Below are positions 3,113 through 23,219 of a stretch of DNA of 30,929 bases, piece after piece. The notes beneath the pieces are model-generated. The model ran no database searches and was not told the DNA's origin. It was given only the letters and a program-made list of their open reading frames with translations. Every line of letters starts with the position of its first letter. Within the stretch, counting starts at the first letter, position 1. Both the position numbers and the translations under genes were made by a program. Source of the DNA: an uncultured Halieaceae bacterium (GTDB lineage Bacteria > Pseudomonadota > Gammaproteobacteria > Pseudomonadales > Halieaceae). Where the stretch lies: positions 1 through 30,929 of the forward strand of contig CALINF010000331.1 of NCBI GenBank assembly GCA_938045215.1. The letters are read 5' to 3'.

Positions 3113-3141
3113 CCAGGTCATTACGAAAGGGTGCCAGTTCT

Positions 3142-4359: not shown

Positions 4360-4407
4360 AAAGCGATACCTGTACTCATACGAACTAACCGGGCAAAAAT
4401 GCGCAAA

Positions 4408-4599: not shown

Positions 4600-4753
4600 A
4601 TTCTCTCCCGGAAGCTGCAATAAATTACAATCACTTGTCGTGTTGCCGATTCTGCTACCCTAACATGGTGCGGACAGGTTTTTCTCTCACCCTATCGGCA
4701 CGGATGTACACGGTACAACTGGATGCGACACTTTCGAGCAACGCGCTGCTCAC

Positions 4754-5686: not shown

Positions 5687-7262
5687 TGCCATCATTTTGG
5701 GCGCGGGTCACAATGGACTGACAGCTGCAAACTATCTCGCCATCGGCGGGATGAAGGTGTGTGTTCTTGAGCAGCGTCACGTCGTCGGCGGCGCCGCCGT
5801 GAGTGAAGAATTCCACCCGGGCTACCGCAACTCACTCGCATCGTACGTTGTCAGCTTGTTACGCAGCGAAGTGGTTCGGGATCTAGAGCTGGAACGCTAT
5901 GGCTACGAGCCACTACTGCTGGAGAATTCGCTATACCTGAATTCTGGCGGTGACTACCTGCTGCTAAATGGTGACGAGGGTCATGACCGGGCAGAGTTCG
6001 GTCGCTTTTCCGCTAGCGACTACGATGCCATGCTCGCCTTCGAGGAAAGCGTCGACAAGGTTGGTGGCATACTTGCAAAACAGTGGTTGAAGACCCCGCC
6101 CAAGCTGCATGGTGGTGGGCTGAGCGACCTGTTGGAGAGCGTGAAGCTGGGCCTGGACGTACACCGCCTTGATAAGGACAGCCGCTGGAGGCTACTACAG
6201 TTTTTCATCGGCGCACCCCAGAGCATCATCGAGCGCTGGTTTGAGAGTGACAAGGTCAAGGCCATGGTTGCAGCGCACATTATGCCCGCCAACTATGCGC
6301 CCCTGACCCAGCCAGGCGCCAGCCTGGCAATGCTACACCACGCAGTCGGCGAGATAGCCGGACGCAAGGGCGCGTGGGGTCTGGTGAAGGGCGGAATGGG
6401 TACGATTACGCAGGCAATGGCGAATTCGGCACGAGACAAGGGCGTCACGATCCAGACCAATGCCGGGGTTGAGCAGATTCTCATCGAGGGCGGCGCGGTC
6501 TCAGGCGTGCGACTGGAAAATGGCGACACGATTCTCGCCCCGGTGGTGGCGGCCAACACCGATCCCAAGCGTACGTTCCTGACACTGGTGGGCGAGGAAC
6601 ACTTGCCCAGCGACTTTGTTCGCGACATCAGCGCGTTCCGCCAGGAATCTGCGTCTCTGCGTATGAATCTCGCACTCAGTGGGCTCCCTGATTTCAAGGC
6701 ACTGCCCTCTGCAGGCATCGGCCCCCAGCATCAAGCCAGCATCACGCTGATAGAGAGCATGCAGCACCTTGATGAGGCCTACTTGTCAGCGCGCTCCGGT
6801 ATACCTGCACAGCCACCAATCATTGAGGCCATTATTCCCAGCGCGGTCGACAACAGTCTCACTGACAAGCCAGGTACTCACGTGATGAGCCTGCTATGCA
6901 AATATATGCCATACGATCTGGCGAACGGTGAGCATTGGGACGCCAAGAAGCCCAGTGTGGTGCAGAATATCCTCGAGCATGTCACCCGCTTCATTCCGAA
7001 TCTTCCTGAGATATTAGTCCACACGCAATGCCTGACGCCGCTGGATATTGAGCGGCTGTTTGGTATGACGCGAGGTGATATCTGTCATGGACGTATGGAG
7101 CCGGATCAACTGTACAGCGCCCGCCCCCATCCGGATGCCGCGCAATATGCCACACCAATCGGCGGACTCTACCTGTGCGGTTCCGGCACTCACCCCGGGG
7201 GGGGTGTTACCGGTGCACCAGGCCACAACGCCGCTCGCCGTATCCTGAAGGACAGGCGCTAG
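5667..7262 (+). CDS. COG1233 phytoene dehydrogenase-like (PYROXD2-like) FAD oxidoreductase, copy A
   Basis: GAGHNGL Rossmann motif, VGGAAVSEEFHPG, LHHAVGE...GAWGLVKGGMG and C-terminal LYLCGSGTHPGGGVTGAPGHNAA. The start overlaps the upstream gene by 20 nt. Confidence 0.88.
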   Translation: MSHNQFDAIILGAGHNGLTAANYLAIGGMKVCVLEQRHVVGGAAVSEEFHPGYRNSLASYVVSLLRSEVVRDLELERYGYEPLLLENSLYLNSGGDYLLLNGDEGHDRAEFGRFSASDYDAMLAFEESVDKVGGILAKQWLKTPPKLHGGGLSDLLESVKLGLDVHRLDKDSRWRLLQFFIGAPQSIIERWFESDKVKAMVAAHIMPANYAPLTQPGASLAMLHHAVGEIAGRKGAWGLVKGGMGTITQAMANSARDKGVTIQTNAGVEQILIEGGAVSGVRLENGDTILAPVVAANTDPKRTFLTLVGEEHLPSDFVRDISAFRQESASLRMNLALSGLPDFKALPSAGIGPQHQASITLIESMQHLDEAYLSARSGIPAQPPIIEAIIPSAVDNSLTDKPGTHVMSLLCKYMPYDLANGEHWDAKKPSVVQNILEHVTRFIPNLPEILVHTQCLTPLDIERLFGMTRGDICHGRMEPDQLYSARPHPDAAQYATPIGGLYLCGSGTHPGGGVTGAPGHNAARRILKDRR

Positions 7263-7311
7263 CGCCCTGACTTGCCTTGGGTGGGGGGTTTCTACGCTAT
7301 TGCTTAGCCAG

Positions 7312-8892
7312 CTAACGATCCCTGAGTATGGCGTTGGCCGCATTATGTCCAGGCAGCCCACTGACGCCACCACCTGGATGAGCGCCAGAACCACACAGGT
7401 ACACGCCCTGCACTGGCATCTTGTACGCAGCGTGTCCTGGAATCGGTCGCAGAGAATAGAATTGGTCAAGGTGCAACGCGCCGTGGAAGATATCCCCGCC
7501 AACCATGTTCAGGTCCCGCTCAATATCCAGTGGCGTCTTTATCTGTCGCCCGACTATCGACGCTTTGAAGTTCGGTGCGTATTGATCAATGGTATCGACA
7601 ATGACGTCGGCCGCCTCATCACGAACATCATCCCAATTGCGACCATCCGGTAAATGGCGCTGAAAATGCTGACAGAACAGGCTGGCCACGTGGCCGCCCG
7701 GTGGCGCCAGCGAATCGTCCTGGGTTGATGGCACCTGCATGGATATCACTGGTTTGCGCGACCAGCCCAGTTGCCTTGCATCATAATAAGCGTTCTGGAT
7801 GTAACCTAGCGACGGACTGACTTCGATCGCGCCCATGAAGTGCTCTTCACCCCGACCCGCCATGCTCGTAAACCTGGGTAGCTCAGACAATGCCACATTC
7901 ATGCGAAAGGTCGCAGAGTGGCTTCGATAATTTTCGATTCTGCGTTGATCGGGTGGGTCGAGACTGTCGCTATCAAGAAGTTTTTGCAAGAGTATTTGTG
8001 GATGCACATTGGCCGCAACGAATCGCGATGTGAGCTCTCTGCCATCAGCAGTGAGCACACCACACGCCTTGCCATCGCGAGTCAGGATTTTGCTAACCGG
8101 CGAACTGGTTTCTATTCGGGCTCCCTTGCTGCGTACAAACGAGGCCATTGATTCACTGATCGCGCCCATGCCGCCTCTAGCAATACCCCAGGCGCCCGCG
8201 CGACCCTTAACCTCACCGAAAGCGTGGTGCAATAACACGTAGGCTGTACCAGCATGGTATGGCTCGGCAAAGTTCCCAATAACACCCTCCAGCCCCAGCA
8301 CACCCTTAAATGCTTCACCCTCAAACCAGGTGTCCAGGTAATCGCCAAGCGAGCGTGTCATCAGTTCCGCCAGCACCGTCTGGTGATGTTTGTCCAATTT
8401 ACGCAATAGGTTCCCGGCTTTAAGCAAACCGACCGCATCTCGCCAACCTCCACCAATATTGGGAGGCGACTGCACCGCCAGTTCGCGCAGCGCCATCGCC
8501 ACCGTCGCAATGCCAGAGTCGAATTCTTCCATGCGCTGGGCATCACGCCGGGAGAAGCGCGCCACCTCGGCGTGAGCCTGGGCATCATCGCGTGTCAATA
8601 ACAGATGGTCGTTTTCGAGCAAACTGAGCGTGCCTGCGGGTCGTTCAAGAATATCCAGCCCGTGCTGCTCCAGCTGCAGATCAGCAATGACCCGTGGATG
8701 CAGCAAGCTGACGGAGTACGAGTACACCGAGTTTCTAAAGCCCGGGTGAAATTCCTCCGTTACAGCGGCACCACCCACCACAGGTCGTGACTCCAGCATC
8801 AGAACCCGCAGTCCGGCACGCGCAAGGTAGCCAGCGCAGGTCAGTCCGTTGTGTCCTGCACCGATGACAATAACGTCGGCATCCATCGCCAT
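7312..8892 (-). CDS. COG1233 phytoene dehydrogenase-like (PYROXD2-like) FAD oxidoreductase, copy B
   Basis: GAGHNGL, VGGAAVTEEFHPG, LLHHAFGE...GAWGIARGGMG and YLCGSGAHPGGGVSGLPGHNAA. A GAGGGA SD precedes ATG 8892. Confidence 0.88.
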   Translation of the reverse strand: MAMDADVIVIGAGHNGLTCAGYLARAGLRVLMLESRPVVGGAAVTEEFHPGFRNSVYSYSVSLLHPRVIADLQLEQHGLDILERPAGTLSLLENDHLLLTRDDAQAHAEVARFSRRDAQRMEEFDSGIATVAMALRELAVQSPPNIGGGWRDAVGLLKAGNLLRKLDKHHQTVLAELMTRSLGDYLDTWFEGEAFKGVLGLEGVIGNFAEPYHAGTAYVLLHHAFGEVKGRAGAWGIARGGMGAISESMASFVRSKGARIETSSPVSKILTRDGKACGVLTADGRELTSRFVAANVHPQILLQKLLDSDSLDPPDQRRIENYRSHSATFRMNVALSELPRFTSMAGRGEEHFMGAIEVSPSLGYIQNAYYDARQLGWSRKPVISMQVPSTQDDSLAPPGGHVASLFCQHFQRHLPDGRNWDDVRDEAADVIVDTIDQYAPNFKASIVGRQIKTPLDIERDLNMVGGDIFHGALHLDQFYSLRPIPGHAAYKMPVQGVYLCGSGAHPGGGVSGLPGHNAANAILRDR

Positions 8893-8912
8893 AGAATCAT
8901 CCCTCACAGTAG

Positions 8913-9088: not shown

Positions 9089-9439
9089 ATGCCAGAAATC
9101 AGCGTACAGCACGGATGTGCTTCTCTTACCGATTTGGTCAAAGTGGACTCATTCGGCGACCCTATTGGCGAGCTTCCGCTACAGACCGACAAGGGCTTCT
9201 TCGAACAAGGTAATATGGTTGCAGGCACCTGGGAGTGCGAGGTGGGCGCGCTGAAGCTCGACCTCGATGTGACCGAATTCTGCCATCTGCTGGAAGGACA
9301 CTGGAAGCTTACGTCAGAGTCAGGACAGGTAACCGAAGTGAAAGCCGGCGACAGTTGGGTATTCCCAAAAGGGTGGAAAGGTACTGCCGAAGTGCTGCAG
9401 AAAGTCCGCAAGGTCTATCTGATGATAATGCCGGGTTAA
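9089..9439 (+). CDS. DUF861 (Cupin_3) cupin, cytoplasmic
   Basis: AGTWECEVG, TEFCHLLEGHWKLT and VKAGDSWVFPKGWKGT. CAGGAG SD. DUF861 cupins commonly neighbour PuuB-like oxidases. Confidence 0.85.
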   Translation: MPEISVQHGCASLTDLVKVDSFGDPIGELPLQTDKGFFEQGNMVAGTWECEVGALKLDLDVTEFCHLLEGHWKLTSESGQVTEVKAGDSWVFPKGWKGTAEVLQKVRKVYLMIMPG

Positions 9440-9546: not shown

Positions 9547-10848
9547 CTAAAGAGCATCCTTGAGCTTGTACCAGCTCATCCCCAGCGCGAGACCGGGCCG
9601 GCGCAGGAGCTTACCTCCAGGGAATGGCCAATGTGGAATTCTGGCAAACACATTAAAACGTTCGGGTGAGCCGCTGATCATCTCGGCCATGATGCGGGCC
9701 ATGATGTGTGTGGGAGCCACCCCATGCCCCGAATAGGCCTGAATGTAGCTGACTCCTTCTGACAGGTGACCGAGCTGGGGCATACGATTGATACCGATAC
9801 CAATCTGCCCACTCCAGCCATAGTCGACCTGAGCATCTTGCAGTTCGGGAAATACCTTATGCATCTTGCGGGACAGGACGCCCACCACGTCGCTGGGTTC
9901 AAGTCCGGAATAGTTCGATAAGCCACCAAACAACATGCGCTTGTCGGCGGACAGGCGAAAATAATCAAGCGCCGTTCGTGGATCACAAACGGCCACATCA
10001 CCCGGTAGAATTTTCTGCGCCAGGTTATCAGGCAAGGGGGCGGTGGCAATAACCGAACTGCTGGAGGGCAACACGCGACTGGCAAGGCGACTGACCAAAC
10101 CCCCGAGATACGCATTGCCACACAAAATCACCTTGCGTGCAGTGATGCTGCCGCGCTCCGTGACTACACGAGGCCTGGGCCCCTGCACCAGGTTCAGCAC
10201 CCTGGATTGCTCAAAAATTCTGGTGCCTAGCCGCTCCGCGGCCCTCGCCTCGCCAATGCAGAGATTCAGCGGATGAATATGCCCATTGGCGTAATTGAGC
10301 AATCCTCCGAGATACTGCTGCGAGCTCACAAACTGTTTCAGCTCATCCTTGTCCAGCAGTGTGTATTCGTGTGTATTGCCGATCGACTTTTCAAAGTCCT
10401 TCCACTGGGCAAACGCCGTCATATGCCGAGGCTTCAATGCGACATCGCAGTATCCCCATTTCAGGTCGCAATCGATTTCATACTTCTCAACACGCTCGGC
10501 AATAATGTCGCGTGCCTCCAGACCCATCTGATAAATCGCCCGCACGCCCTCTTCGCCGATGTGTTTGGTGAATCGCTCAGGATCGTGACCAATACCACCT
10601 ATGATCTGTCCGCCATTGCGGCCGGTGGCGCCCCAACTGATCCGATTCGCCTCCAACAACGCCACGTCTATCCCGCGCTCGGCTAATTCAAGGGCTGTAT
10701 TGACGCCACTAAACCCACCACCTACAACCACCACATCAGCGTCGATATCCTCTTCCAGAGTGGGGTAGTCGGTCTGCCAGTTAGCGGTAGCAGCGTAAAA
10801 GGAGCAGGTATGCTCTTGAGTTTCAGACGGACTCTTTAGTCCCAGCAT
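9547..10848 (-). CDS. puuB: Gamma-glutamylputrescine oxidase-like FAD oxidoreductase (PuuB/PauB, DAO family)
   Basis: SFYAATAN, VVVVGGGFSG, GATGRNGGQ, GHIHPLNL, DYFRLSADKRMLFGG and YSGHGV. A strong GGAGG SD precedes ATG 10848. Confidence 0.85.
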   Translation of the reverse strand: MLGLKSPSETQEHTCSFYAATANWQTDYPTLEEDIDADVVVVGGGFSGVNTALELAERGIDVALLEANRISWGATGRNGGQIIGGIGHDPERFTKHIGEEGVRAIYQMGLEARDIIAERVEKYEIDCDLKWGYCDVALKPRHMTAFAQWKDFEKSIGNTHEYTLLDKDELKQFVSSQQYLGGLLNYANGHIHPLNLCIGEARAAERLGTRIFEQSRVLNLVQGPRPRVVTERGSITARKVILCGNAYLGGLVSRLASRVLPSSSSVIATAPLPDNLAQKILPGDVAVCDPRTALDYFRLSADKRMLFGGLSNYSGLEPSDVVGVLSRKMHKVFPELQDAQVDYGWSGQIGIGINRMPQLGHLSEGVSYIQAYSGHGVAPTHIMARIMAEMISGSPERFNVFARIPHWPFPGGKLLRRPGLALGMSWYKLKDAL

Positions 10849-10933
10849 TGAATTCCTCCAAGAAAAACTTTCACTAACTAACACGACAACAACAGCGGAA
10901 AACTGCCGGAATAGCTGCGTTCGATATTGAGCC

Positions 10934-10948: not shown

Positions 10949-11078
10949 CGTCAAACCTGTGCACGTTGGCACTGCACTCCCGCCCTATACGTCAGGTAGA
11001 CGAGCGTTCACAGAGCAGATTAGCTATTCTTGTTTAACGCACGCCATGAAGACAACACAGGATGGAAAGGTTCAACTG

Positions 11079-12464
11079 ATGAAGATCGCCCCGCAATCTG
11101 AGCTAGAGCATTTTTTGCAATCGCACCCTGATGTTCAAATGCTGGAACTACTCATGCCGGACATCAATGGCATTCTGCGCTGCAAACGCATACACCGACG
11201 CGAATTCGACAGTTTATTCGATCGCAGTTTCAAGGCCCCGCTGAGCGTCCCACTACTTGGCATAATGGGTGAGTTGTACGATGAGGACCTATCTCACGAC
11301 CTGCTGGCGGGCGATCCCGATCAACTCCTGTTGCCAATTACAGGATCGCTGGCAACGATACCCTGGCTGGAATCGTCCACGGCTCAGGTCTTGGGTGGGT
11401 TTGCGGATATGGATTTGCAACCATCATGGACCGATCCTAGAAACGTACTGGCCAACGTGCTGGATCAATACACCAGCAGGCAACTAAAGCCGGTGGTCGC
11501 AACGGAGCTGGAGTTCTATCTACTGGCTAACAACAGCGACTCGGTCCCCTCCCCCCTTATGGGTGAGATACCGGGCACCGATCTCAAACAACAGGGCATA
11601 CAGTACTGCATGGCAGACGATCTGTTTGAATGCGACGCATTCCTGGATGACGTTAGAAAAGCCTGCGAGACTCAGAATGTACCCCTGACTGCCATACACT
11701 CGGAGTTCTCCGCAGGTCAGTGGGAAATTAATACCCATCATACAGACGATCCTGTGACGGCCTGCGACCACGCCGTATTGTTGAAACGCATCGTCAAAGG
11801 CGTTGCGCGCAAACACGGCTTTGGAGCTACCTTCATGGCTAAGCCCTTCGATGAATCCGCCGGCAGCGGTCTACACATTCATGCCAGCGTTTACGGTAGC
11901 GATGGCCGTAACATCTTCGCCGAGCTAAGCGGTGAATCGTCTACGGTTGTCTCAGACACGCTTCTGCATGCGATTGGAGGTCTGAGCGATACTCTGAGTG
12001 AGTCGATGGCAATCTTCGCGCCAAACGCAAACTCGTACCGCCGTTTCAAGGCTGGCGCTTTTGCCCCTTCCTCCCATACCTGGGGCCACAACCACCGGGA
12101 GGTGGCATTGCGTATACCCGTATCGTCGCCGGATAATCGGCGGATTGAACACCGGGTCGCGGGAGCAGATGCCAACCCTTACCTTGTAATGGCTGCAGTA
12201 CTGGCGGGCCTACTCCATGGTATGAGCAACAAGCTGGACCCCGGAGCGCCAATACCCAGCGGTGCCGATCTGTCTAATTCGCAAGTCACGCTGCCGCGTC
12301 GATGGGATGAAGCGCTCGCGCTGTTTAGAAGCAGCACAATACTGCCGGAGTATCTGGGTAAAACCTACTGCGACACCTTTGCCGCACTGCGCCAGGGTGA
12401 GTGTAACGACTATCATGGCCGCGTTTCCAACCTCGACTATGAGTGGTATCTCAGAGCACTGTAG
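11079..12464 (+). CDS. puuA: Glutamine synthetase-like gamma-glutamyl-polyamine synthetase (PuuA/PauA), copy 1
   Basis: PDINGILRCK, ATELEFY, EFSAGQWEIN, GSGLHIH, NANSYRR and RIEHRVAGADANPY. The GS-I YEAP flap is replaced by AFAP...TWG. Divergent from puuB. Confidence 0.85.
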   Translation: MKIAPQSELEHFLQSHPDVQMLELLMPDINGILRCKRIHRREFDSLFDRSFKAPLSVPLLGIMGELYDEDLSHDLLAGDPDQLLLPITGSLATIPWLESSTAQVLGGFADMDLQPSWTDPRNVLANVLDQYTSRQLKPVVATELEFYLLANNSDSVPSPLMGEIPGTDLKQQGIQYCMADDLFECDAFLDDVRKACETQNVPLTAIHSEFSAGQWEINTHHTDDPVTACDHAVLLKRIVKGVARKHGFGATFMAKPFDESAGSGLHIHASVYGSDGRNIFAELSGESSTVVSDTLLHAIGGLSDTLSESMAIFAPNANSYRRFKAGAFAPSSHTWGHNHREVALRIPVSSPDNRRIEHRVAGADANPYLVMAAVLAGLLHGMSNKLDPGAPIPSGADLSNSQVTLPRRWDEALALFRSSTILPEYLGKTYCDTFAALRQGECNDYHGRVSNLDYEWYLRAL

Positions 12465-12482: not shown

Positions 12483-13253
12483 CTAGGCGGAAAATTTTTC
12501 CTGGGAACGGCGGTAGTGCGCAGGTGTTTGACCCGTCGCCTTTTTGAACGCAGCGTAAAACGTTGATGTCGAGTTAAAACCCACCTGTAGCGCTACGTCG
12601 AGGATCGATGCGGTTTCATTTCCGCCCAAGGCCAGTATTCGTGTGGCTTCCGCCACCCGATGGCGATTCACAAAGTCAAAGAATGAAACACCGTGCCCTT
12701 CGTTGATTGCCTGCGATAGATGGTTAACTGAACAACCCAACATAGCTGCGAGCTGGGGCAGCGACAAGTGCGAATCCAGATACACCCTATCCTCGTTCAT
12801 CGCTTCCGACAAACGCACTGTGACCGCCCTCAAGCCCGATGCACTGAGCCCCGACTTTGCGTATCGCTTGCCATGAGAGGAGCCTGCGGTAACACGACCT
12901 ATAAGCTGCGGCTCTCGATAGTAGTCCTCGATTTTTAGCGCGCTATCCCCGTCCATGGTGATGAACTCCGCGCCGATCCAACCTGTTGCGGGATCCTCAT
13001 CTCCCTCCGGAGATGCTCGATACTGAAACGCGATAGTGGACTCTCCTGCAAGCACCTCTCCTACCAACGTGTAGCAATGGTTATCCTGACGAAAATACTC
13101 CTGAAGATGGCTGACCAGCTCATCTCGTGCGAGCAGCTGCTGGGAAGGAATATCGAAATAGGTGCCTCCTCGAGAGAGATGATCGGCGACCTGTTTAGGA
13201 TCATGCCGATTCCAGGCATCGAAGTAGCTTTCCACAAAATCAGAGGTCAACAT
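12483..13253 (-). CDS. AraC family regulator with an N-terminal SnoaL/NTF2-like domain
   Basis: N-terminal FVESYFDAWNRHD...YFDIP is SnoaL-like. C-terminal LSLPQLAAMLGCSVNHLSQAIN, FFDFVNRHRV and ILDVALQVGFNSTSTFYAAFKKATGQTP form the AraC double HTH. Confidence 0.85.
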   Translation of the reverse strand: MLTSDFVESYFDAWNRHDPKQVADHLSRGGTYFDIPSQQLLARDELVSHLQEYFRQDNHCYTLVGEVLAGESTIAFQYRASPEGDEDPATGWIGAEFITMDGDSALKIEDYYREPQLIGRVTAGSSHGKRYAKSGLSASGLRAVTVRLSEAMNEDRVYLDSHLSLPQLAAMLGCSVNHLSQAINEGHGVSFFDFVNRHRVAEATRILALGGNETASILDVALQVGFNSTSTFYAAFKKATGQTPAHYRRSQEKFSA

Positions 13254-13300
13254 CTGCAACAGACCCTACCAACAGTACAATAGACTACATTGAATACCAT
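13247..13300 (-). CDS. Possible 17-aa leader peptide (MVFNVVYCTVGRVCCRC) overlapping the regulator start codon
   Basis: AGGAGG (13314-13309) lies 8 nt before ATG 13300. The stop TGA (13249-13247) overlaps ATG TTG A of the AraC gene by 7 nt. Confidence 0.3.
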   Translation of the reverse strand: MVFNVVYCTVGRVCCRC

Positions 13301-13448: not shown

Positions 13449-14306
13449 ATGAGCCACCACCCTACCGACACAGCCATGGCCCAACGAGCGGGGTTTGATC
13501 CACGGCAGTTGATCAAGGTCGTTGTGTACGGCCTGCTGCTCGTAAACTTTGGTCTTTATCTTGTCGAAGATATAGCGATATCTGCTCATACGCTTCGCAA
13601 CGGCGGGACATGGCTGGACTATACGGCTGCTTTTGCGGTGTCTCTGGATGTACTTGCATGGCTTACTCTTCTGGCTCTGTTCGAACTTGAAACCTACCTG
13701 CTTTCTGACGACGCCTTTACACCTCGCAGAATAAAGGCGATGCACGGCATCAGAATTGTCTGCTACCTGTTTCTTGCACACACCCTGCTAGCTTACGCGA
13801 ATGCTGGCAAGGATCTCATAGGTCTGACTCCGATACAGGAGACAGATAGCCTGTGTCAGCTGGTGGGGCGCGACATTTCTTTTGGTTTTAATCTGGAGTA
13901 CACCGAGCTGAATCTGGAAAACTGCATCGAGTTATCCCGTGCGACAGAGTTCTACTTAATCGAGAACGACTCGGTGGTGACCGATGCGCAAGGGCTGCAG
14001 ATAGAGAGGGAGCTTGTCTGGCTGGATCTGGTTGAAGCTGTTACCTGGCTGGTGATCCTGCTTTGCATGGAGGTCATCGTGCGCTTGCAGGATCGCGGGA
14101 CAACTCGCGGCGTGCTGATTCGCAGTGCCAGCGGGATCAAACTCTTCCTCTACCTGTTGCTGTGGGGCGCGGCGGCTTACTGGATTTACCGGGGGCATTA
14201 TATGTATGCCTGGGATGAAGCGCTGTGGATTCTCGGCTTCTTCGCTATCGAGATGAATATCTCGGACTGGAAGAAAGAAATTCGAAGTGCTGACGCAGCG
14301 CCCTAG
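13449..14306 (+). CDS. Hypothetical 6-TM membrane protein with three internal two-helix repeats
   Basis: Three [K/R]xxxYxxL helices alternate with three [D/E]xxxWx7E helices. A large loop contains two Cys (136 and 159). Alternative start at 13476. Confidence 0.8.
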   Translation: MSHHPTDTAMAQRAGFDPRQLIKVVVYGLLLVNFGLYLVEDIAISAHTLRNGGTWLDYTAAFAVSLDVLAWLTLLALFELETYLLSDDAFTPRRIKAMHGIRIVCYLFLAHTLLAYANAGKDLIGLTPIQETDSLCQLVGRDISFGFNLEYTELNLENCIELSRATEFYLIENDSVVTDAQGLQIERELVWLDLVEAVTWLVILLCMEVIVRLQDRGTTRGVLIRSASGIKLFLYLLLWGAAAYWIYRGHYMYAWDEALWILGFFAIEMNISDWKKEIRSADAAP

Positions 14307-15514
14307 AACGCCGGTGGTGGTGTTGCGCGCGCCCTGGCCGGTGCCCAGAAGGGCTTATCCTTGACCTCACAGCGTGCAACCTTGCGATAATACCGCAGCT
14401 CTTTTTGATAGTAGATCTCTGCCCAAATCTCACGATCCAGCATCGATGTCTCGACCATGGCAAGCGCGATGTTCGCCTTGACAGAGGGAGACCACATGGC
14501 TGATGTGATATAGCCAATCTCTTTACTACACCGTTTACCGCTGTACAGAATCGCCCCCTCTGCAGGTTTGTTGCCCTCGATATCCAGTTTCGTAAGCGTG
14601 TATCTGGGGCCCCGATCGCGCTCCTCCAGCAGGGCGCGGCGTCCATTAAAATGCGGCTTTTTGAAATCCACCAACCAGCCCAGATTCAGCTCGAACGGCG
14701 TCTGGTCGTGCTGAAAATGAATGGTCTTTAACGCCTCGGAAAATTCCATATCCGGCATAATAAAGCCAGCTTCCAGTCGAGCCATATTGGTCGCCGCTTC
14801 CCCATAGGGGTGTATCCCGTGATGCTCGCCCGCTGCGTAAAGTGCATCCCACATCGCTATTGCCTGAGACGGGTCTATCCACAGCTCGTAACCTAAGTCA
14901 CCCGTAAAGCCTGTGCGTGAAACCATCAGCGACGCGTCGTTGAAAGGGAAATGCATCACGCCAAACGGCTTCAGGTTTTCGATACCATCGAGACCCATGG
15001 TCAGCAATGTGGCGCAGGACGTGGGGCCCTGCAAAGACAGTGCCGCATAGCGCTCTGTCATATCTTCGACTGACAGATCATCAAACCCCAGACAGCTCTT
15101 GCGCAGCCAGGCCAGGCACGGACTCCCACAGGTCAGCATGAAACGATCCTCGCCAAGCCTGAAGATTGTTCCGTCATCAACCATGCGGCCTTCATCGGTA
15201 CACCAGCAAACGTAGGTGACCCTGTCGACTTTCAACTTGGACACGTCCCGTGTAACCATGCGATCCAGCATGGCAACTGCATCCGGCCCACTGATCATAT
15301 ATTTCTGCATGGGGCAGATGCCGTAGGTGGCACAGGTATTTCTGATGCAGAAATATTCGTACTCGGCATCGTAATAGTAATCGGCAAACTTAAACCCGTT
15401 CCACGAGGACCACGCATCGCGCAGGTTCATCGGTGCCTGGCGCTCATGAAAATGCGAGTGCTTTAGTCGCTCCCCCGCAAACGGATCATTGTGGGCGATG
15501 GCTTCACTCGTCAT
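14303..15514 (-). CDS. Stand-alone GcvT-like aminomethyltransferase (folate-binding) family protein
   Basis: GRMVDDGTIFRL, ALSLQGP, SRTGFTGDLGYELW, ARLEAG, FNGRRAL and IGYITSAMWSP. GAGG SD lies 9 nt before ATG 15514 (alternative start 15523). It overlaps the upstream stop. Confidence 0.87.
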   Translation of the reverse strand: MTSEAIAHNDPFAGERLKHSHFHERQAPMNLRDAWSSWNGFKFADYYYDAEYEYFCIRNTCATYGICPMQKYMISGPDAVAMLDRMVTRDVSKLKVDRVTYVCWCTDEGRMVDDGTIFRLGEDRFMLTCGSPCLAWLRKSCLGFDDLSVEDMTERYAALSLQGPTSCATLLTMGLDGIENLKPFGVMHFPFNDASLMVSRTGFTGDLGYELWIDPSQAIAMWDALYAAGEHHGIHPYGEAATNMARLEAGFIMPDMEFSEALKTIHFQHDQTPFELNLGWLVDFKKPHFNGRRALLEERDRGPRYTLTKLDIEGNKPAEGAILYSGKRCSKEIGYITSAMWSPSVKANIALAMVETSMLDREIWAEIYYQKELRYYRKVARCEVKDKPFWAPARARATPPPAF

Positions 15515-17123
15515 AGCAATCATCCTCAGGTACGGTGTTGGGCCGCTTCAGGTCGATCAGGATCTCGCGTGCCGCATTGGCGCCGCACGCGGAAGAGACG
15601 CCGCCTCCGGGGTGGGTTGATGATCCACACATATACATATTTTTTAGGGGCATTCTGTATTGCCCGTAGCCCGGGAAAGGGCGGTTGAAAAGCAGTTGAT
15701 CAATCGTAAGCTCTCCCTGAAAAATATTGCCCTCTGTCAGCCCTATCTCGTTCTCAATTTCGTGAGGGGTGCGCACTTCCATGTGAACAATGAGGTCTTT
15801 GAACCCCGGGCTATAGCGCTCGAGTTTATCAATGACCGTTTGCCCAAACTGATCCCGTTTCTCGGGTGTCCAGGGTCCATCAGCAAGCTCGGGTGGGCAG
15901 TACTGGACAAAATTGGACATCCAGTGCTTACCGACAGGCGCCACGGTGGGATCCCAAGCCGAAGGAATAATCGATTCAATAAAAGGATCGTCAGACCAGC
16001 GGCCGCGCTTCCAGCAATCGTACGCTCGCTCCATGGTTTCCAGTGAACCTGCAAAACCCTGCCCGCCGCGGTTGATGTAGCGATTGTCGGGCACATTGTT
16101 AAACTTCGGCATCCCAGACAACGCAATATTCACTTTGCCCGATGAGCCACGGATCTTGAAGTTTTTGGCTCGCTCGAAGATGCCCGGCGGCAGGTCCTTC
16201 TTGTCCATCACCTTGGTAAAGGTACGACGCGCATCCAGGTTCGATACGACGATACCAGCGTGAACCTCTTCGCCACTCTCCAGTGCCACTCCCACAGCCT
16301 TGCCATCTTCAACCAAAATCTGTTGAACCCCGGCCCCGGTACGTATCTCTCCGCCTTCAGCCTGTAATGCACTAGCCAGCGCGTTTGAAATTGCGCCCAT
16401 ACCACCGCGAGCCAAACCCCAGGCACCCACGTTGCCATCCACGTCGCCCATGACGTGGTGCAACAGAATATAGGCGGAACCCGGTGAATACACGCCCAGC
16501 GCAGTTCCAATGATGCCAGGACTGGCCATAGCGGCCTTAATCAGGTCGCTCTCAAAGTATTCATCCAGAAACTCAGCAGCACTCATCGTGAAAAAACGCA
16601 CATACTCATAGAGTTCTCGTTCACCCAAAGACCAGAACTCTTTGGCCAGAAACAACATCTCACGGATATCGCGCGGCTTGAATGAACTAGGATCCGGGGG
16701 CGTTCGCATCAACGTCTTGCGGATCAGCTGTGCATAGCGCCCCAGGTCTGCCTGAAAGCGCATCATAGAGTCTGCATCGTGCGGTGAATGCCGTCTCAAT
16801 TCCAGATAGCTGGCTTCGGCATCTGGATAATCTATGAGTGTCTCGCCGCTGTCGCTAAAAGTTACTGTGCCCAGGTAAGGCACCAGAAGCAGACCATGTC
16901 GGGTAAGATCAAGATCGCGATGAATGCTTTGACGCATCATGCTGCACACATAGGAACAGCTGGAGTAGAACCATCCATCGTGCATCTCGCGGGTGACCGC
17001 CGCGCCACCGATGTAGTCGTTCTTCTCTACCACCACCACGTCCAAACCGGCTTTTGCCAGGTATGCGGCATTGGTCAAGCCGTTGTGACCAGCGCCAACA
17101 ACGATGGCATCGTACTGTTTCAT
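15504..17123 (-). CDS. COG1233 (PYROXD2-like) FAD oxidoreductase, copy C
   Basis: GAGHNGL, IGGAAVT, YILLHHVMGD...GAWGLARGGMG, TEGNIFQGEL and YMCGSSTHPGGGVS. Confidence 0.9.
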   Translation of the reverse strand: MKQYDAIVVGAGHNGLTNAAYLAKAGLDVVVVEKNDYIGGAAVTREMHDGWFYSSCSYVCSMMRQSIHRDLDLTRHGLLLVPYLGTVTFSDSGETLIDYPDAEASYLELRRHSPHDADSMMRFQADLGRYAQLIRKTLMRTPPDPSSFKPRDIREMLFLAKEFWSLGERELYEYVRFFTMSAAEFLDEYFESDLIKAAMASPGIIGTALGVYSPGSAYILLHHVMGDVDGNVGAWGLARGGMGAISNALASALQAEGGEIRTGAGVQQILVEDGKAVGVALESGEEVHAGIVVSNLDARRTFTKVMDKKDLPPGIFERAKNFKIRGSSGKVNIALSGMPKFNNVPDNRYINRGGQGFAGSLETMERAYDCWKRGRWSDDPFIESIIPSAWDPTVAPVGKHWMSNFVQYCPPELADGPWTPEKRDQFGQTVIDKLERYSPGFKDLIVHMEVRTPHEIENEIGLTEGNIFQGELTIDQLLFNRPFPGYGQYRMPLKNMYMCGSSTHPGGGVSSACGANAAREILIDLKRPNTVPEDDCYDE

Positions 17124-18664
17124 TTGAGTATCTCGTGGGCTGCGTTGAAGCCGGGGCCGCCCATCAAGCCGCCACCCGGGTGGCTACCCGCGCCACAGAG
17201 ATACAGACCCGGAATCGGGGTGCCGTATTGGGCCGCCTCATAGGTAGGACGCATCATCAGCAGCTGATCAACGGCAAACTCGGTATGGTGCCAATGGCCA
17301 CCGGTCACATGGTGAAGCGACTCCAGGTCATGGGGCGTCAGGAGTTCCGCGTGCAGGACAAGCTCCCTCAGACCCGGCGCATGGCGCTCCAGGGTTGTGA
17401 GCAACCGTTCCAGCAAGGCCGAGCGGGCCGCGTCTGTCCAGCCGCCTTTCGGTGAAGCGGGGACATACATTACATTTGCTGACAGCACATGCTGACCGGC
17501 GGGCGCCATCGACGCATCCTGTAATGAGGGAATCACCAACTCCATTACCGGGTTCTCCGACGCAGCACCGTATTTGGCATCGTCGAACGCAAACTCCAGC
17601 GCGTCCGGCTCTGAGGCGATGATCATGCGTCCGTCCGGACGATCCACGCCGACGAACGAAGGGACATCGCCAAGTGCAAGATGGAGCTTGGCCACATAGC
17701 CCTCACAGCGCAGTCGCTGGATACGATTGGCGAACTCTATTTCCAGATACCTTGCCCCAACCAGTTGCAAGAATGTGCGCTGTGGATCGGCGCAGGAGAC
17801 AATTCTGGTGGCCGTGATCTTCTCGCCGTCGGCCAGCTCTACTCCGGTTGCCTGCTGGCCATCCTCGCTCTGCGAGATGCATATCTTTGTGACCGGGGCA
17901 TTAAGGCGCACCTGCGCGCCCGCAGCAGTGGCTGCGTTGAGCAGTGCATTGATGAGCCCCTCTATGCCCGTGCCGGGAATAGCATGCCCACCGTTATGAT
18001 CTCCCAACATTCGATACAACAGCGCAAAGACCGCGCTGTTGGGTGAGCGCGGCGCCAGCTTTGACCCCACAAGTCCATCCCAGCTCAGAGCGGCCTGGAG
18101 GTGTTTGTTGTCGAAGTATTCATCCATAAGATCGCGCATCGGCAATGTGGCGACCCGAAGGAACTCGAGCATGTCTTCCTTGCCCAGCCTTCGCAGGCGC
18201 AATCCCAACTGCCCGAACGTCAACATCTCTCCCGGGCTGTTGTTGCCAATGCGCGGCATTGTCTTCATCCAAAAGGGTTCAAGCGCGCGCGCGAACTTTT
18301 GCATCGCTGCGCGGTACCTTAGATAGCTGCTCTTATCATCATCCGAGACCCCGGTTACGCCGTCTACACCTATGACGACGTGCTCACCATCCAGGTTCAG
18401 CCCTATCGTGGGCAGCGGCGCGATAGCGGGTTGATAGCCATGCGATTGGAGCTGCAGATCTTCTACAACCCTGGGAGAAAAGTGGCTGATAGTGTGAGCA
18501 ACAGATGCCTTGAAACCCGGATGAAACTCACGGGCAGATGCAAGGCCACCAGGCGCAGCCGAAGCTTCCAGAACCAGCACGCGTTGACCCTGTTTGGCCA
18601 GGTAGGCCGCACAGATCAGTCCGTTGTGACCTGCGCCGATTACGATTGTGTCGTAGCTATTCAC
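17120..18664 (-). CDS. COG1233 FAD oxidoreductase, copy D (divergent partner of copy C)
   Basis: GAGHNGL, PGGLASAREFHPG, TGGHWHH and LYLCGAGSHPGGG. GTG start. Its stop overlaps the start of copy C by 4 nt (ATGA). Confidence 0.88.
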   Translation of the reverse strand: MNSYDTIVIGAGHNGLICAAYLAKQGQRVLVLEASAAPGGLASAREFHPGFKASVAHTISHFSPRVVEDLQLQSHGYQPAIAPLPTIGLNLDGEHVVIGVDGVTGVSDDDKSSYLRYRAAMQKFARALEPFWMKTMPRIGNNSPGEMLTFGQLGLRLRRLGKEDMLEFLRVATLPMRDLMDEYFDNKHLQAALSWDGLVGSKLAPRSPNSAVFALLYRMLGDHNGGHAIPGTGIEGLINALLNAATAAGAQVRLNAPVTKICISQSEDGQQATGVELADGEKITATRIVSCADPQRTFLQLVGARYLEIEFANRIQRLRCEGYVAKLHLALGDVPSFVGVDRPDGRMIIASEPDALEFAFDDAKYGAASENPVMELVIPSLQDASMAPAGQHVLSANVMYVPASPKGGWTDAARSALLERLLTTLERHAPGLRELVLHAELLTPHDLESLHHVTGGHWHHTEFAVDQLLMMRPTYEAAQYGTPIPGLYLCGAGSHPGGGLMGGPGFNAAHEILK

Positions 18665-18755: not shown

Positions 18756-20798
18756 TCAGCAGACCGCTTGAACATCTACCGTACAATCGTAATAGCACGC
18801 GCCACCCGCCATATCGGCTTTGTGCCCCGGTATCAACGCATTGATCGTCTGACCCGTAGCACTCTCTACAAGCCAGGCGCCCTTGGGAACAAATACGGTG
18901 CCGGTACGGACACTGTCGGATATCGCAAGCGGCATCCTGACTTCGCCCTGATCATTGAAGAGACTCACTTCTTCACCATGAGACAACGCGAGGCTCGCCG
19001 CGTCCACGGGGTGCATCTCGCACACAATATCGCTCTTGTGATCCGCAAGCCCCCCGAACGTCGAGTTGATACGTCGCTCCGATGCCGGACTCACGAGAAC
19101 GAATTGTCGTGCTGCCTCAAGCTCGCGATAACGGGGCAGACCGAGCCCAGCCTCCGCCTCCAGGGCCTCACTGTATAGCTCAATTTTGCCACTGGGCGTC
19201 GCGGGCGATACTCCACGTAGCAAGCCCGGAGTAGTTATCGCTGACATATCTATTGCGCTATCAAGAGGGAGCCTACTAGGTTGCCGTCCATCAAGACCAG
19301 GGGTGGCTGCATTTACGGCTTGATCCATCAACTGTTCATCTGTATCGGTGAAGCACTCGTCCTTGAATCCGAAGCGGGTAGCGAGGCGGCGGAATATCTC
19401 CATATTGGGCAGCGCGTTCCCAAGCGGATCCAGCACGGGGGCGCTGCGCTGCAAATAGTGATGACCATAGGCCTTGTAGAGATCGCCGTATTCCAGGTGT
19501 GTGGCCGCTGGCAGGATTACGTCGGCGCAGGCCATTGAATCGGTCATGCTCACATCACAACCCACCACGAATACATCTTCGTCGAGCAAAGCCGCCCGCA
19601 TATCATCCTGGCGCGGATGTACCGCGATCGGATTGTGATTGTAGATAAACACCCCTTTGAGTGGCACTTCGCTGCCGGGGTCAAGGATATGCCGGGGCAG
19701 GTCCAGCACATTAAACTGACGCACATCAGCCGGGGCCAGGTCGGGGCGCTCAAGCGCATCATGGTCAATCGGAAAGTAGCCGGAGACATCACAGACGCCT
19801 GCCCCTTGCATGCCAAAGTTTCCTGTCAGCGCGGGCAGCGCAAACAGCGCACGCAGGCCAGAGCCCCCGTTGCGATTGCGCTCGGGGGCCACGCCTACGG
19901 AAATTGCCGCAGGCGACAGTTCCTGCCACCATTTGGCGAACTGCTCTATGTCTTCCACTGCCAGGCCGCAGATAGCGGCTGCCCGCTGTGGAGAATAGTT
20001 CGCTGCCTCAGCGAGAAACTGCTCTGCCCCGCTGACATGGCTCTCGATAAAGGCCTCGTCCAGTCCGCCGCGCCTGTTAAGGAGAGCTGCCACCGCATAG
20101 GCCAACACTACATCAGTGCCTGGCATGACCGGCAAATGGAGATCGGCCTCCTGAGCGATGCGTGTACGCTTCGGATCTACTACCACCAGCTTTGCGCCCT
20201 GTTTCTGAGCGTCACGCAATAGCGTCGTTAGATGCAAATTGCAGGCAGTGATGTTGTTACCCCATACGACAATCAAGCGAGAGTGTTGCAGCTCTGTGAA
20301 GGAAATACCGCCTACGTCGCCAAACACACTGTCCCACGCGGCGCTGGAGACACCCGCGCACAGAGGCGAAGAGTCGACCGCGCTCGCACCCAGGCGATGA
20401 AAAAAACGCTTGTCCATGGAACCGCCAGCGAGCAACCCCATGGGGCCACCATAGCTTAGGGGCGCTATCGCCTCGGCACCGTACTCCTCAATGATTGCCG
20501 CAAAGCGCTGATGCACAACGTCCAACGCCTCTTCCCATGACACGCGTCGGTATGCTCCGCCGCCTTTGGGGCCGCTGCGCAACAGTGGCTGGGTCAGGCG
20601 CTGCTCGCCGTGTACTTGCAGCGGTAAACCTTGTGCCACCTTCGCGCAGATTTTCCCTCGAGTGAACGGGTTTGCCTGACTTCCGCGAACTTTCTGTACC
20701 TTGCCATCAGCCACTTCAATCGACAGACTGCAGGTATCGGCACAATCTAAAGGGCAAATACTGGGGTGGCTTGTAAGGGGTGATTCAACCGATGCCAT
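18756..20798 (-). CDS. Mo/W-bisPGD molybdopterin oxidoreductase with N-terminal 4Fe-4S cluster (uncharacterised MopB subfamily)
   Basis: CPLDCADTC...GKICAK iron-sulfur motif, LVVVDPKRT, PGTDVVLA, ADVILPAATHLE, SGKIELYS and a C-terminal molydopterin-binding domain (EMHPVDA...NDQGEV). No Tat signal. AGGAG SD. Confidence 0.88.
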   Translation of the reverse strand: MASVESPLTSHPSICPLDCADTCSLSIEVADGKVQKVRGSQANPFTRGKICAKVAQGLPLQVHGEQRLTQPLLRSGPKGGGAYRRVSWEEALDVVHQRFAAIIEEYGAEAIAPLSYGGPMGLLAGGSMDKRFFHRLGASAVDSSPLCAGVSSAAWDSVFGDVGGISFTELQHSRLIVVWGNNITACNLHLTTLLRDAQKQGAKLVVVDPKRTRIAQEADLHLPVMPGTDVVLAYAVAALLNRRGGLDEAFIESHVSGAEQFLAEAANYSPQRAAAICGLAVEDIEQFAKWWQELSPAAISVGVAPERNRNGGSGLRALFALPALTGNFGMQGAGVCDVSGYFPIDHDALERPDLAPADVRQFNVLDLPRHILDPGSEVPLKGVFIYNHNPIAVHPRQDDMRAALLDEDVFVVGCDVSMTDSMACADVILPAATHLEYGDLYKAYGHHYLQRSAPVLDPLGNALPNMEIFRRLATRFGFKDECFTDTDEQLMDQAVNAATPGLDGRQPSRLPLDSAIDMSAITTPGLLRGVSPATPSGKIELYSEALEAEAGLGLPRYRELEAARQFVLVSPASERRINSTFGGLADHKSDIVCEMHPVDAASLALSHGEEVSLFNDQGEVRMPLAISDSVRTGTVFVPKGAWLVESATGQTINALIPGHKADMAGGACYYDCTVDVQAVC

Positions 20799-20834: not shown

Positions 20835-21773
20835 TCAGTCGGTGCCGATACGACTGGCACGCATATACAGAAACTGCAGCGCCAATGTAGCGGCTGCCAG
20901 CGAGGTAATATCGGCGTGATCGTAAGCTGGAGACACCTCCACCACGTCAAAGCCCACGATATTCAAATCGGCTATACCCTGTAGTATACGCAATGCTTTT
21001 GACGTGCTCAGCCCACCAACGACCGGCGTACCTGTACCCGGCGCGTAGGCCGGGTCCAGACCGTCTATGTCAAAGGTCAGGTAAGTGGGCGTGTCGCCCA
21101 CCCGATTGCGTATGCGCGCTACTATTTGCTCAACAGACAACTCATTGGCGGCGTGCCCATCAATAACCTCAAACGGATGATCCGGCTTATCGTAGTCGGT
21201 GCGAATGCCTACTTGAATGGTCTTGTCGGCGTCTATCAGGCCCTCACGTGGCGCGTGGTAGAACATGCAGCCGTGATTGTATTTTTGCTCCTCCTCGTAG
21301 GAGTCGGTATGGGCATCGAAGTGAATCATCGCCATGGTGCCATGGCTAGCCGCATGGCCACGCAGCAGGGGCAAGGTTACGAAGTGGTCGCCTCCGAAAG
21401 TGATCAGGGTCTTGCCCGCACCGGTGATCATGGCGGCGTGTTCCTCTACTTGAACCAGCATGTCTTCGCTGTCGCCCCAGAGAAAATCGATGTCGCCGTA
21501 GTCAATCGCTTGCAACCTGTCGGGTAGGGCAAAGTCCCAGGGCCAGCGATTCTCTTCCCAACGCAGGTTCGCACTGGCCTGGCGTATGCCATTGGGTCCA
21601 AAACGGGCGCCGGAGCGACCGCTGGTACCCAGATCATAGGGAACACCCATTACTGCCGCGCCGATATCGTCATCTGACAGATCGCGACTAATTGGCAGTC
21701 CCATAAAACTGAAAATATTCGCGTACATGCCCCGGTCACTCAGCGGCGATGCGCCCTTTGCTTGTTGGCTCAT
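20835..21773 (-). CDS. speB: Agmatinase (ureohydrolase family)
   Basis: GVPYDLGTSGRSGARFGPNGIR, GGDHFVT, HFDAHTD, TFDIDGLDPAYAPGTGTP and DVVEVSPAYD. Confidence 0.9.
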   Translation of the reverse strand: MSQQAKGASPLSDRGMYANIFSFMGLPISRDLSDDDIGAAVMGVPYDLGTSGRSGARFGPNGIRQASANLRWEENRWPWDFALPDRLQAIDYGDIDFLWGDSEDMLVQVEEHAAMITGAGKTLITFGGDHFVTLPLLRGHAASHGTMAMIHFDAHTDSYEEEQKYNHGCMFYHAPREGLIDADKTIQVGIRTDYDKPDHPFEVIDGHAANELSVEQIVARIRNRVGDTPTYLTFDIDGLDPAYAPGTGTPVVGGLSTSKALRILQGIADLNIVGFDVVEVSPAYDHADITSLAAATLALQFLYMRASRIGTD

Positions 21774-21827
21774 CAATCCGTCCTCAACATAATCCTGCTA
21801 TTAAAAAGCTGCCACTGAAGTTTGCTA

Positions 21828-23177
21828 CTACAGGCAGGCATCATACTCCAGCGGCGTCACCTGCCGGTCATATTCATCCATTTCCTGTTGCTTTAACAGC
21901 GTAAACACCCGCTGGAAATCACTGCCGAAATTGTCCCGGATAAATGCCGAGTCGGCGAAGCTGGTGAGCGCGTCCGGCCAGTAGCGCGGCAAGCTGGCCG
22001 GTACCTGGTCATAGGCATTTCCCGCCAGTGGCTCAGGTGCAGATAACTGGTTCTCGATGCCATGCAGCATGCCGGCCAGGAGCGCAGCAATCACCAGATG
22101 AGGATGAGCGTCTGCTCCCGGCACACGATGCTCCAGCCGTGTTGCAACAGGTGCATCAGCAGGCACCCGCACTGCAACGGTGCGATTCTCATATCCCCAG
22201 GTGGGCGCCATCGGCGCATGCGTGCCACGCTGAAAGCGTCGATAGGAGTTCAGATTGGGGGCAAACAGCAGCATGCTGTCCCGCATACCATACAGGCAAC
22301 CGGCAATCGCCTGACGCAGTAGATCAGTACCCTTGCCTGTACCATCATCGAAAGCGTTGTTGCCCTCACTATTGAGGACACTGCAGTGCAGGTGCATACC
22401 GTTGCCCGCCAACTCCCCGAAGGGCTTTGCCATGAAGCTGGCGATCAGGCCGTGGCGCTTGGCAACACCCTTGATCGCCCGCTGCAGCATCAGCGCCTGA
22501 TCTGCCGCCACCAGCGCGTCGGCATTGTGGTAGAGGTTGATCTCATACTGGGAAGGTGCGCCCTCCTTGATCAGCGTATCAATAGGCAGGTTCTGTGCCA
22601 CACAGGCATCGCGTATCTCATGCATCAGAGCAGACATATCACTCATGGTATCGATGCAGTAGGTTTGGCCGGTCGCCAGAGCACCGCCTACCCGATCCGT
22701 CTGGGTATGCACCGGGCGCCCCAACGTATCGTGCTCGTCTTTCAGCAAATAGAATTCCATCTCGCTGGCAACCACAGGTGTGAGCCCCAGTGCTGCAAAG
22801 CGATCCATGAGCCCCTGCAACAGAATGCGCGGGTCGAGCGAGCAAGGCTCGCCGCTGACCTCGTGCAGGGAGATCATCACCTGCCCCGTTGGCCGCTGTG
22901 CCCACGGCACGGTTGCCAGGGTGCGGATATCAGCCTGACACAGACCATCGCCGTCACCGGAATCAAACACCCAGGCTTCGACATCGCGTCCCCAGACATC
23001 GAACGCGAGCGAGCTAATGGGTAACTTAAGCCCGCCGGCGATCACCTTTTCAATTTTGTCCCGCGTCACCCATTTACCACGCAGGCCGCCCGCGATGTCC
23101 GGCAGGATGATTTCAAATATCTCGATAGCGGGATTGTCCTCGAGAAAGCGCTGCAAGCGCTCACTGGCATCGGACAT
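21828..23177 (-). CDS. puuA: Glutamine synthetase-like gamma-glutamyl-polyamine synthetase (PuuA/PauA/SpuI-like), copy 2
   Basis: PDIAGGLRGK, ASEMEFY, EGAPSQYEIN, GNGMHLH, NSYRRF, THAP...TWGYENR and RLEHRVPGADA. AAGGA SD before ATG 23177. Confidence 0.87.
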   Translation of the reverse strand: MSDASERLQRFLEDNPAIEIFEIILPDIAGGLRGKWVTRDKIEKVIAGGLKLPISSLAFDVWGRDVEAWVFDSGDGDGLCQADIRTLATVPWAQRPTGQVMISLHEVSGEPCSLDPRILLQGLMDRFAALGLTPVVASEMEFYLLKDEHDTLGRPVHTQTDRVGGALATGQTYCIDTMSDMSALMHEIRDACVAQNLPIDTLIKEGAPSQYEINLYHNADALVAADQALMLQRAIKGVAKRHGLIASFMAKPFGELAGNGMHLHCSVLNSEGNNAFDDGTGKGTDLLRQAIAGCLYGMRDSMLLFAPNLNSYRRFQRGTHAPMAPTWGYENRTVAVRVPADAPVATRLEHRVPGADAHPHLVIAALLAGMLHGIENQLSAPEPLAGNAYDQVPASLPRYWPDALTSFADSAFIRDNFGSDFQRVFTLLKQQEMDEYDRQVTPLEYDACL

Positions 23178-23219
23178 AGTGAATTCCTTAGCTGTTGTTA
23201 TGGTCTGGGTGCCCAAAAC

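Follow-up and report, generated by a model that had tools for sequence, protein, structure and literature searches.

Closest described systems and the trio locus

Folate-linked oxidative demethylation of amines is carried out by dimethylglycine dehydrogenase and oxidase (DMGDH and DMGO), sarcosine dehydrogenase (SARDH) and heterotetrameric sarcosine oxidase (TSOX), in which a flavin oxidises an N-methyl group and a GcvT-fold module captures the one-carbon (C1) unit on tetrahydrofolate (THF). Here, we describe three adjacent genes, FAD1, FAD2 and a GcvT-like gene, hereafter the trio, on a DNA stretch of 30,929 nucleotides (nt) that we refer to as the window (contig CALINF010000331.1 of assembly GCA_938045215.1). 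The trio contains a GcvT-fold module with the same conserved folate and catalytic motifs, and flavin-dependent N-methyl oxidation is predicted for it as well. However, the flavin domain is of the DAO type in all the described enzymes, while the flavoproteins of the trio are of the CrtI/PYROXD2 type. Moreover, in the trio there are two paralogous flavoproteins and the folate protein is a separate polypeptide, unlike in DMGDH, SARDH and TSOX. A different architecture is found in trimethylamine N-oxide (TMAO) demethylase, Tdm. Its C-terminal folate domain is the nearest relative of the GcvT-like protein, and both are without the FDVSHMG motif, but in Tdm the N-terminal part is a metal-dependent DUF1989 domain, and a flavoprotein is lacking.

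The limonene dehydrogenase CtmAB, like the delta-24 sterol desaturase, is a heterodimer made of paralogous CrtI-like flavoproteins; both enzymes oxidise methyl or allylic carbons by removal of hydride or hydrogen (PMC11061730). As in the trio, the two paralogous subunits are encoded side by side, and these enzymes are precedents for heterodimers with this fold; however, their substrates are hydrocarbons, they have no folate partner and the identity of FAD2 to CtmA/B is 24–25%. The best Swiss-Prot match of FAD2 is PYROXD2, which in humans is a mitochondrial protein with a link to infantile disease. It differs from FAD2 in having no known FAD1-type or GcvT-like partner, and a function carried over between the two is an extrapolation.

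We suggest, with moderate confidence, that the trio encodes one three-subunit, folate-linked oxidative N-demethylase, built from a PYROXD2/CrtI-type flavoprotein pair and a GcvT-like subunit. The three genes are seen as parts of one machine because in related genomes each of the 20 stand-alone Tdm-C-like GcvT genes examined adjoins such a flavoprotein pair, and because a model of the complex between FAD2 and the GcvT-like protein passed its controls. No characterised PYROXD2-like/GcvT system was found in the literature searched.

The three genes lie on the minus strand. FAD1 (17120–18664) starts with GTG and encodes a CrtI/PYROXD2-like flavoprotein of 514 amino acids (aa) with the Pfam domains Amino_oxidase and NAD_binding_8; FAD2 (15504–17123) encodes a PYROXD2-like flavoprotein of 539 aa from the Amino_oxidase/CrtI family; and the third gene (14303–15514) encodes a putative stand-alone folate-binding protein of 403 aa with GCV_T and GCV_T_C. 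FAD1 and FAD2 share 4 nt (ATGA). The overlap between FAD2 and the GcvT-like gene measures 11 nt with the ATG at 15514, which has a GAGGA 7–8 nt on its 5' side, as the start, and 20 nt with the alternative in-frame ATG at 15523. The open reading frame (ORF) coordinates thus bear out the translational coupling by 4-nt and 11-nt overlaps that had been noted in a preliminary description of this DNA. That description had also stated that gcvP and gcvH are missing and that the flavin subunits belong to COG1233 and not to the DAO family. Both statements hold: a domain search of all large ORFs in the window detected no gcvH or gcvP domain, and by Pfam and NCBIfam both flavoproteins are of the Amino_oxidase/CrtI family, with CrtD (4rep) and CrtI (4dgk) as the best folds in the PDB. 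Their best matches are far under all equivalog cut-offs; the top NCBIfam match of both is CrtO, at 230–270 bits against a cut-off of 1000. A scan of the locus for promoters and terminators gave no more matches than shuffled sequence. The host is a Halieaceae (OM60/NOR5) gammaproteobacterium known from a metagenome-assembled genome (MAG) that is 67% complete, and the closest homologues are found in Halioglobus MAGs at 92% identity.

Conservation of the trio

A scan with one genome per species identified 80 loci with close relatives of the GcvT-like protein, in Halieaceae, Porticoccaceae/SAR92, other Cellvibrionales and a few alphaproteobacterial MAGs. The order FAD1-FAD2-GcvT on a single strand (type A) is found in 68 of the 68 loci with sufficient upstream DNA. 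The 4-nt overlap between FAD1 and FAD2 is kept in 57 of these, and the spacing from FAD2 to GcvT lies between -20 and +54 nt in all but one. As the same gene order recurs throughout, the arrangement is far beyond chance. A survey of the synteny of the triplet had been proposed as a check, with lack of conservation as the outcome that would speak against a common system; the trio is conserved.

It had further been described that the trio closes a puuA2-speB-Mo run. These genes are indeed located upstream on the same strand. However, the agmatinase and glutamine synthetase-like (GS-like) pair is lineage-specific, being present in only three other loci, and the molybdenum enzyme is present in 12 of 82, so the conserved unit is the trio and not the whole upstream run.

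A second gene order, FAD2'-FAD1'-GcvT' (type B), is found nearby in about 20 loci. Here, the identity to the proteins of the window is about 62% for FAD2', 42% for FAD1' and 47% for GcvT'. Type B resembles sarcosine oxidase, where soxB is followed by soxA, both in gene order and in the division of labour. Among 400 sampled genomes of the phylum, a FAD2 homologue at 55–60% identity is found in 10 others, and all five distant loci that were checked, including one on a Mesorhizobium chromosome, have the order FAD2'-FAD1'-GcvT'. The trio thus spans gamma- and alphaproteobacteria from both marine and soil habitats. One to four trios per genome are found in bloom-associated marine Halieaceae and Porticoccaceae, and in the genome of the window additional copies of trio genes are located on contigs C52 and C283. 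The FAD2 family as a whole comprises about 2,100 clusters at 50% identity (E < 1e-30). For the more distant FAD2 relatives P0122, P0126 and P0127 the genomic contexts are short or uninformative.

Two predicted flavoprotein subunits

In a maximum-likelihood tree the flavoproteins fall into two starred clades, FAD1-type (support 100/100) and FAD2-type (100/96), and each trio supplies one member to each clade. The FAD1 clade also takes in the second gene of the type-B trios and of the Mesorhizobium trio. The branches of the FAD2-type are several times shorter than those of the FAD1-type, and among 67 orthologues the mean identity is 84% for FAD2, 73% for GcvT and 61% for FAD1. In FAD2, 252 residues are invariant in this set, and FAD1 is the less conserved subunit. 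With one member from each subunit clade in every trio, the sequence evidence is as expected for a fixed heteromer in which one subunit is under strong constraint, and FAD2 is probably the catalytic one.

The AlphaFold2 model of FAD2 has a pLDDT of 94. Its best structural match in Swiss-Prot is PYROXD2, with 36–37% identity over the full length (37% to the human protein) and a TM score of 0.94, followed by the limonene dehydrogenase subunits CtmB and CtmA (24–25% identity) and then by carotenoid desaturases. Both subunits retain GxGxxG and a C-terminal HPGGG motif in their orthologue alignments. With a full-length likeness in both fold and sequence and with intact FAD motifs, FAD2 belongs to the PYROXD2-like branch.

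Among the relatives, a reaction is known only for the limonene dehydrogenase and the delta-24 sterol desaturase. On this basis it could be argued that the flavoprotein pair hydroxylates or desaturates a non-amine C–H bond in the manner of CtmAB, and that the GcvT-like protein merely scavenges formaldehyde made elsewhere in the island. However, FAD2 is closer to PYROXD2 (37%) than to CtmA/B, no terpenoid or steroid genes are located nearby, and the context is one of amine catabolism in Halieaceae, Porticoccaceae and Mesorhizobium alike. Further, the His motif for covalent flavin attachment in CtmAB and the sterol desaturase, G-F-[LR]-x-[NS]-[TL]-H-A (PMC11061730), is not kept in FAD2, whose consensus at this site is EGWFYSSCSY, without a His. 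In FAD1 the site reads PGFKASVAHS, with the His one position further on, so that the motif is inexact. We therefore regard a CtmAB-like activity as quite improbable.

At the site of the flavin-linking His, FAD2 residues 50–61 (at about 16941–16976 on the minus strand) contain the invariant stretch Y53-S54-x-C56-S57-Y58-V59-C60-S61 with two Cys. Three further CrtI/PYROXD2-like or amine-oxidase flavoproteins are encoded within positions 1–8907 of the window, at 1–1737 (SpdH-like), 5661–7262 and 7312–8907. The two single PYROXD2-like copies group together in the tree, apart from the trio subunits, and one of them is preceded by a membrane protein without a Pfam match (4754–5686).

The GcvT-like folate protein

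The GcvT-like protein matches the Pfam families GCV_T, at 185.6 bits, and GCV_T_C. Its closest relative in both PDB and NCBIfam is the C-terminal folate domain of TMAO demethylase (PDB 9q5a, 171 bits; NCBIfam Tdm model, 250 bits). The latter match covers model positions 385–761 only and is far from the cut-off of 1100, and the DUF1989 part is unmatched, i.e. the protein is not a full Tdm. Folate domains of the DMGDH/SARDH/sarcosine oxidase type match at 71–92 bits. The three motifs DD (113–114), SRTGFTGDLGYE (S199–E210; in general form SRTGxTGxxGYE) and RLEAG (R246–G250) are invariant in 46 orthologues and paralogues. They align with motifs of the T protein and of Tdm, and we take them, from the T-protein literature, to be folate-binding.

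The presence of GCV_T and GCV_T_C in the product of the third gene could be read as a sign of an ordinary glycine-cleavage T protein. Its scores are, however, under both GcvT cut-offs (TIGR00528, 134 against 236; PRK00389, 196 against 300), the FDVSHMG motif of true T proteins is replaced, as in Tdm, and gcvH and gcvP are not found nearby. In addition, related complete genomes contain a canonical gcvT elsewhere, with scores above 320 bits in the relatives G001, G014 and G024, compared with the 134 bits of the GcvT-like protein. From these sequence comparisons a T-protein identity appears effectively refuted.

It can also be asked whether the GcvT-like protein acts alone, as a THF-dependent methyltransferase that takes a methyl group directly from a quaternary ammonium or sulfonium compound, in the way that DmdA acts on DMSP, with the flavoproteins oxidising the product separately. 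DmdA and the aromatic O-demethylases LigM and DesA are stand-alone enzymes of the GcvT fold and are among the weaker NCBIfam matches, and the GbcA-like Rieske genes that occur nearby suggest substrates of the betaine type. However, the DmdA model is matched at 126 bits against a cut-off of 410 (PRK12486), and the best match is the Tdm domain, which captures formaldehyde. A protein acting by itself is also at odds with the one-to-one adjacency to a flavoprotein pair (20/20) and with the complex model described below. Taken together, we judge a DmdA-like enzyme unlikely.

Modelled contact between FAD2 and the GcvT-like protein

FAD2 and the GcvT-like protein were modelled as a complex from alignments in which the sequences were taken in the same locus order, and the score is the confidence of the model itself. 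The ipSAE scores were 0.87, 0.84 and 0.85, while the best of three controls reached 0.00. In a benchmark, 58 of 80 solved complexes attained this mark, as did 2 of 110 mismatched pairs, counts that hold only roughly here because custom alignments were used. The modelled interface is formed by residues 65–101, 228–239, 348–349, 390–398 and the C-terminus of FAD2, and by residues 48–60, 164–168, 231–235, 314–316 and 341–347 of the GcvT-like protein. AlphaFold-multimer modelling had been proposed as a way to look for a tunnel between the sites; the outcome of the complex model (0.85 compared with 0.00) supports the view that FAD2 may bind the GcvT-like protein.

A single gene fusion of a related kind was found. 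At L127 (1437–3887), a protein of 816 aa combines a domain of the formaldehyde-activating GFA family with a PYROXD2-like flavoprotein. The contig is probably eukaryotic, as its neighbours are RTC, VMP1 and a CDP-OH transferase.

A proposed folate-linked oxidative N-demethylase

The gene anatomy, the conservation, the homologies, the motifs and the in-silico interface are established, and from them we infer a chemistry, a direction, an electron acceptor and a substrate. The two paralogous flavoproteins, one of the FAD1-type and one of the FAD2-type, would form a heteromer that is docked to the GcvT-like subunit. One flavoprotein, probably FAD2, would act on a tertiary or secondary amine and abstract a hydride from an N-methyl group, and the resulting iminium or formaldehyde equivalent would be passed to THF on the GcvT-like subunit, giving 5,10-methylene-THF and the demethylated amine. 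The flavin electrons may go to a quinone or another partner, but presumably not to NAD, while the methylene-THF would be oxidised and PurU would then release formate. The substrate is most likely a methylated amine, either a methylated di- or polyamine or trimethylamine (TMA) or dimethylamine (DMA). The earlier proposal of a split THF-coupled amine demethylase on a non-DAO flavoprotein thus gains support from the conservation, the motifs, the likeness to the Tdm domain, the complex model, the neighbouring genes and the kinship of FAD2 with PYROXD2, as far as sequences and models can indicate.

Human genetics fits a methylamine-consuming role for the PYROXD2 family. Urinary TMA and plasma DMA are higher where PYROXD2 expression is lower (PMC3169529), and the PYROXD2 locus is associated with N2-acetyl-N6,N6-dimethyllysine (PMC13352909).

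Several points weigh against an N-demethylase. The characterised relatives of the FAD fold act on C–H bonds of hydrocarbons and not on amines, and in the literature searched no reaction has been assigned to PYROXD2. In neither of the two proteins does the modelled interface exceed the other residues in conservation (p = 0.41 and 0.15), and among the best 150 family representatives there is no natural fusion of a flavoprotein with GcvT. The neighbouring genes (polyamine-type ligases, oxidases and aminotransferases) appear to indicate amines in general and name no methylated substrate. Finally, three sediment libraries labelled RNA-Seq contain near-identical fragments of all genes, but these are weak evidence of expression; DNA carry-over is possible, since the depth is 2–4 and a neighbour on the opposite strand is also covered.

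The reaction could in principle also run in reverse, as a flavin-dependent reductive methylation of an amine from methylene-THF. Flavin and methylene-THF methylation chemistry exists in ThyX and TrmFO, and such an activity would be in keeping with a folate-binding subunit beside a flavoprotein. However, the context of transporters, aminotransferases, aldehyde dehydrogenase and purU is catabolic, and no NAD(P)H-binding partner that could reduce the flavin is present, which makes the reverse direction highly improbable.

If the oxidative N-demethylase is real, it would be a third way to build a folate-linked N-demethylase, and a common one. Methylated amines are large marine pools of nitrogen and carbon, and the trio would bear on their consumption by marine bacteria without Tdm. 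It would also give PYROXD2 a concrete, testable reaction.

Alternating molybdenum enzymes

Directly upstream of FAD1, after a gap of 91 nt, is a gene for a cytoplasmic oxidoreductase of 680 aa with a molybdenum bis(pyranopterin guanine dinucleotide) (Mo-bisPGD) cofactor (18756–20798, minus strand; Molybdop_Fe4S4, Molybdopterin and Molydop_binding). Among 82 loci, such a gene is directly upstream of the type-A trio in 12, i.e. the enzyme is an accessory partner in some lineages. In 32 loci, the type-A trio has a gene for a small MOSC-domain protein immediately downstream, in most cases on the same strand at a distance of 9–71 nt. The two enzymes, which are unrelated to each other, are never found in the same locus, and neither accompanies type-B trios. 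As the loci are related by kinship, this mutual exclusion is partly phylogenetic.

The molybdenum ligand of the Mo-bisPGD enzyme is the Cys in SPLCAG. A formate dehydrogenase was rejected as its identity, since no His follows this Cys and the formate dehydrogenase model scores 250 against a cut-off of 666.

All MOSC proteins assayed to date reduce N-oxygenated compounds (PMC10637980). A full Tdm, with a score above the cut-off of 1100 bits, is found in none of 41 related genomes, while 8 of the 41 contain a gene similar to flavin-containing monooxygenases (FMO-like). Therefore, a route by N-oxide reduction followed by demethylation is allowed. It can be speculated that a type-A trio acts together with a molybdenum N–O reductase, either the Mo-bisPGD or the MOSC enzyme, in such a way that the flavin electrons reduce an amine N-oxide, e.g. 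TMAO, to the tertiary amine, which is then demethylated onto folate. This would be a net redox-neutral, Tdm-independent demethylation of N-oxides in Cellvibrionales, and by extension PYROXD2 would be the missing mitochondrial TMA/DMA dehydrogenase. We consider this scenario rather unlikely. If the trio is an N-demethylase, the alternation of the molybdenum enzymes suggests an undescribed link between N–O reduction and N-demethylation. Both relatives from the same genus (G001 and G002) contain an FMO-like (Tmm-like) gene at about 266 bits.

Neighbouring genes

Counts of neighbours were obtained by clustering all ORFs from the 82 loci. Two genes adjoin the trio in 49 loci each. The first encodes a six-helix membrane protein of 285 aa from no known family (13449–14306, plus strand), which in Porticoccaceae is located directly upstream of the trio on the same strand. 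Its model has a pLDDT of 89 and a beta-rich loop insert at residues 125–180, and it has no match in PDB, in Pfam or, outside its own family, among the AlphaFold DB clusters. It is possibly an amine importer or a membrane partner of the trio. The second encodes a SnoaL-AraC protein (12483–13259, minus strand; SnoaL_2 and HTH_18), which is the probable regulator of the trio.

Upstream of the molybdenum enzyme, also on the minus strand, are an agmatinase (20835–21776), which is above the NCBIfam cut-offs (417 compared with 302), and a GS-like gamma-glutamyl-amine ligase (21828–23216), which is under all equivalog cut-offs. Besides the window, only L007, L008 and L020 have this pair upstream of the trio; the link is local to the lineage and says little about the substrate. 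On the other side of the trio, Pfam identifies a cupin (9089–9439, plus strand), a PuuB/PauB-like DAO oxidase (9547–10884, minus strand) and a second GS-like ligase (10959–12464, plus strand), with counterparts in 14, 42 and 28 of the 82 loci, respectively. These frequent neighbours are of the polyamine-catabolism type. A route from TMA to monomethylamine and on to gamma-glutamylmethylamide was considered and is not supported: GmaS is above the cut-off in only 2 of the 41 relatives, and the local GS-like genes are under all equivalog cut-offs.

Some of the neighbours relate to C1 chemistry: a purU equivalog is found in 11 loci, often in the order purU-(Mo)-FAD1-FAD2-GcvT, a GFA-family gene follows immediately after GcvT' in 10, and GbcA-like Rieske oxygenases are located beside the trio in 5. 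Rarer neighbours are SpdH-like flavoproteins, class-III aminotransferases, aldehyde dehydrogenase, cupins and various transporters. The neighbours of the Mesorhizobium trio are a Pot-type ABC transporter, an amine oxidase, an aminotransferase and a BetI-type repressor. On contig C52 of the genome of the window (L005, 3–6437), there is a second pair of a flavoprotein and GcvT'. The genes that come after it encode a GbcA-like Rieske oxygenase (272 bits; cut-off, 670), an M20 hydrolase and a DUF2855 protein; this gene set looks like a separate module for methylated amines.

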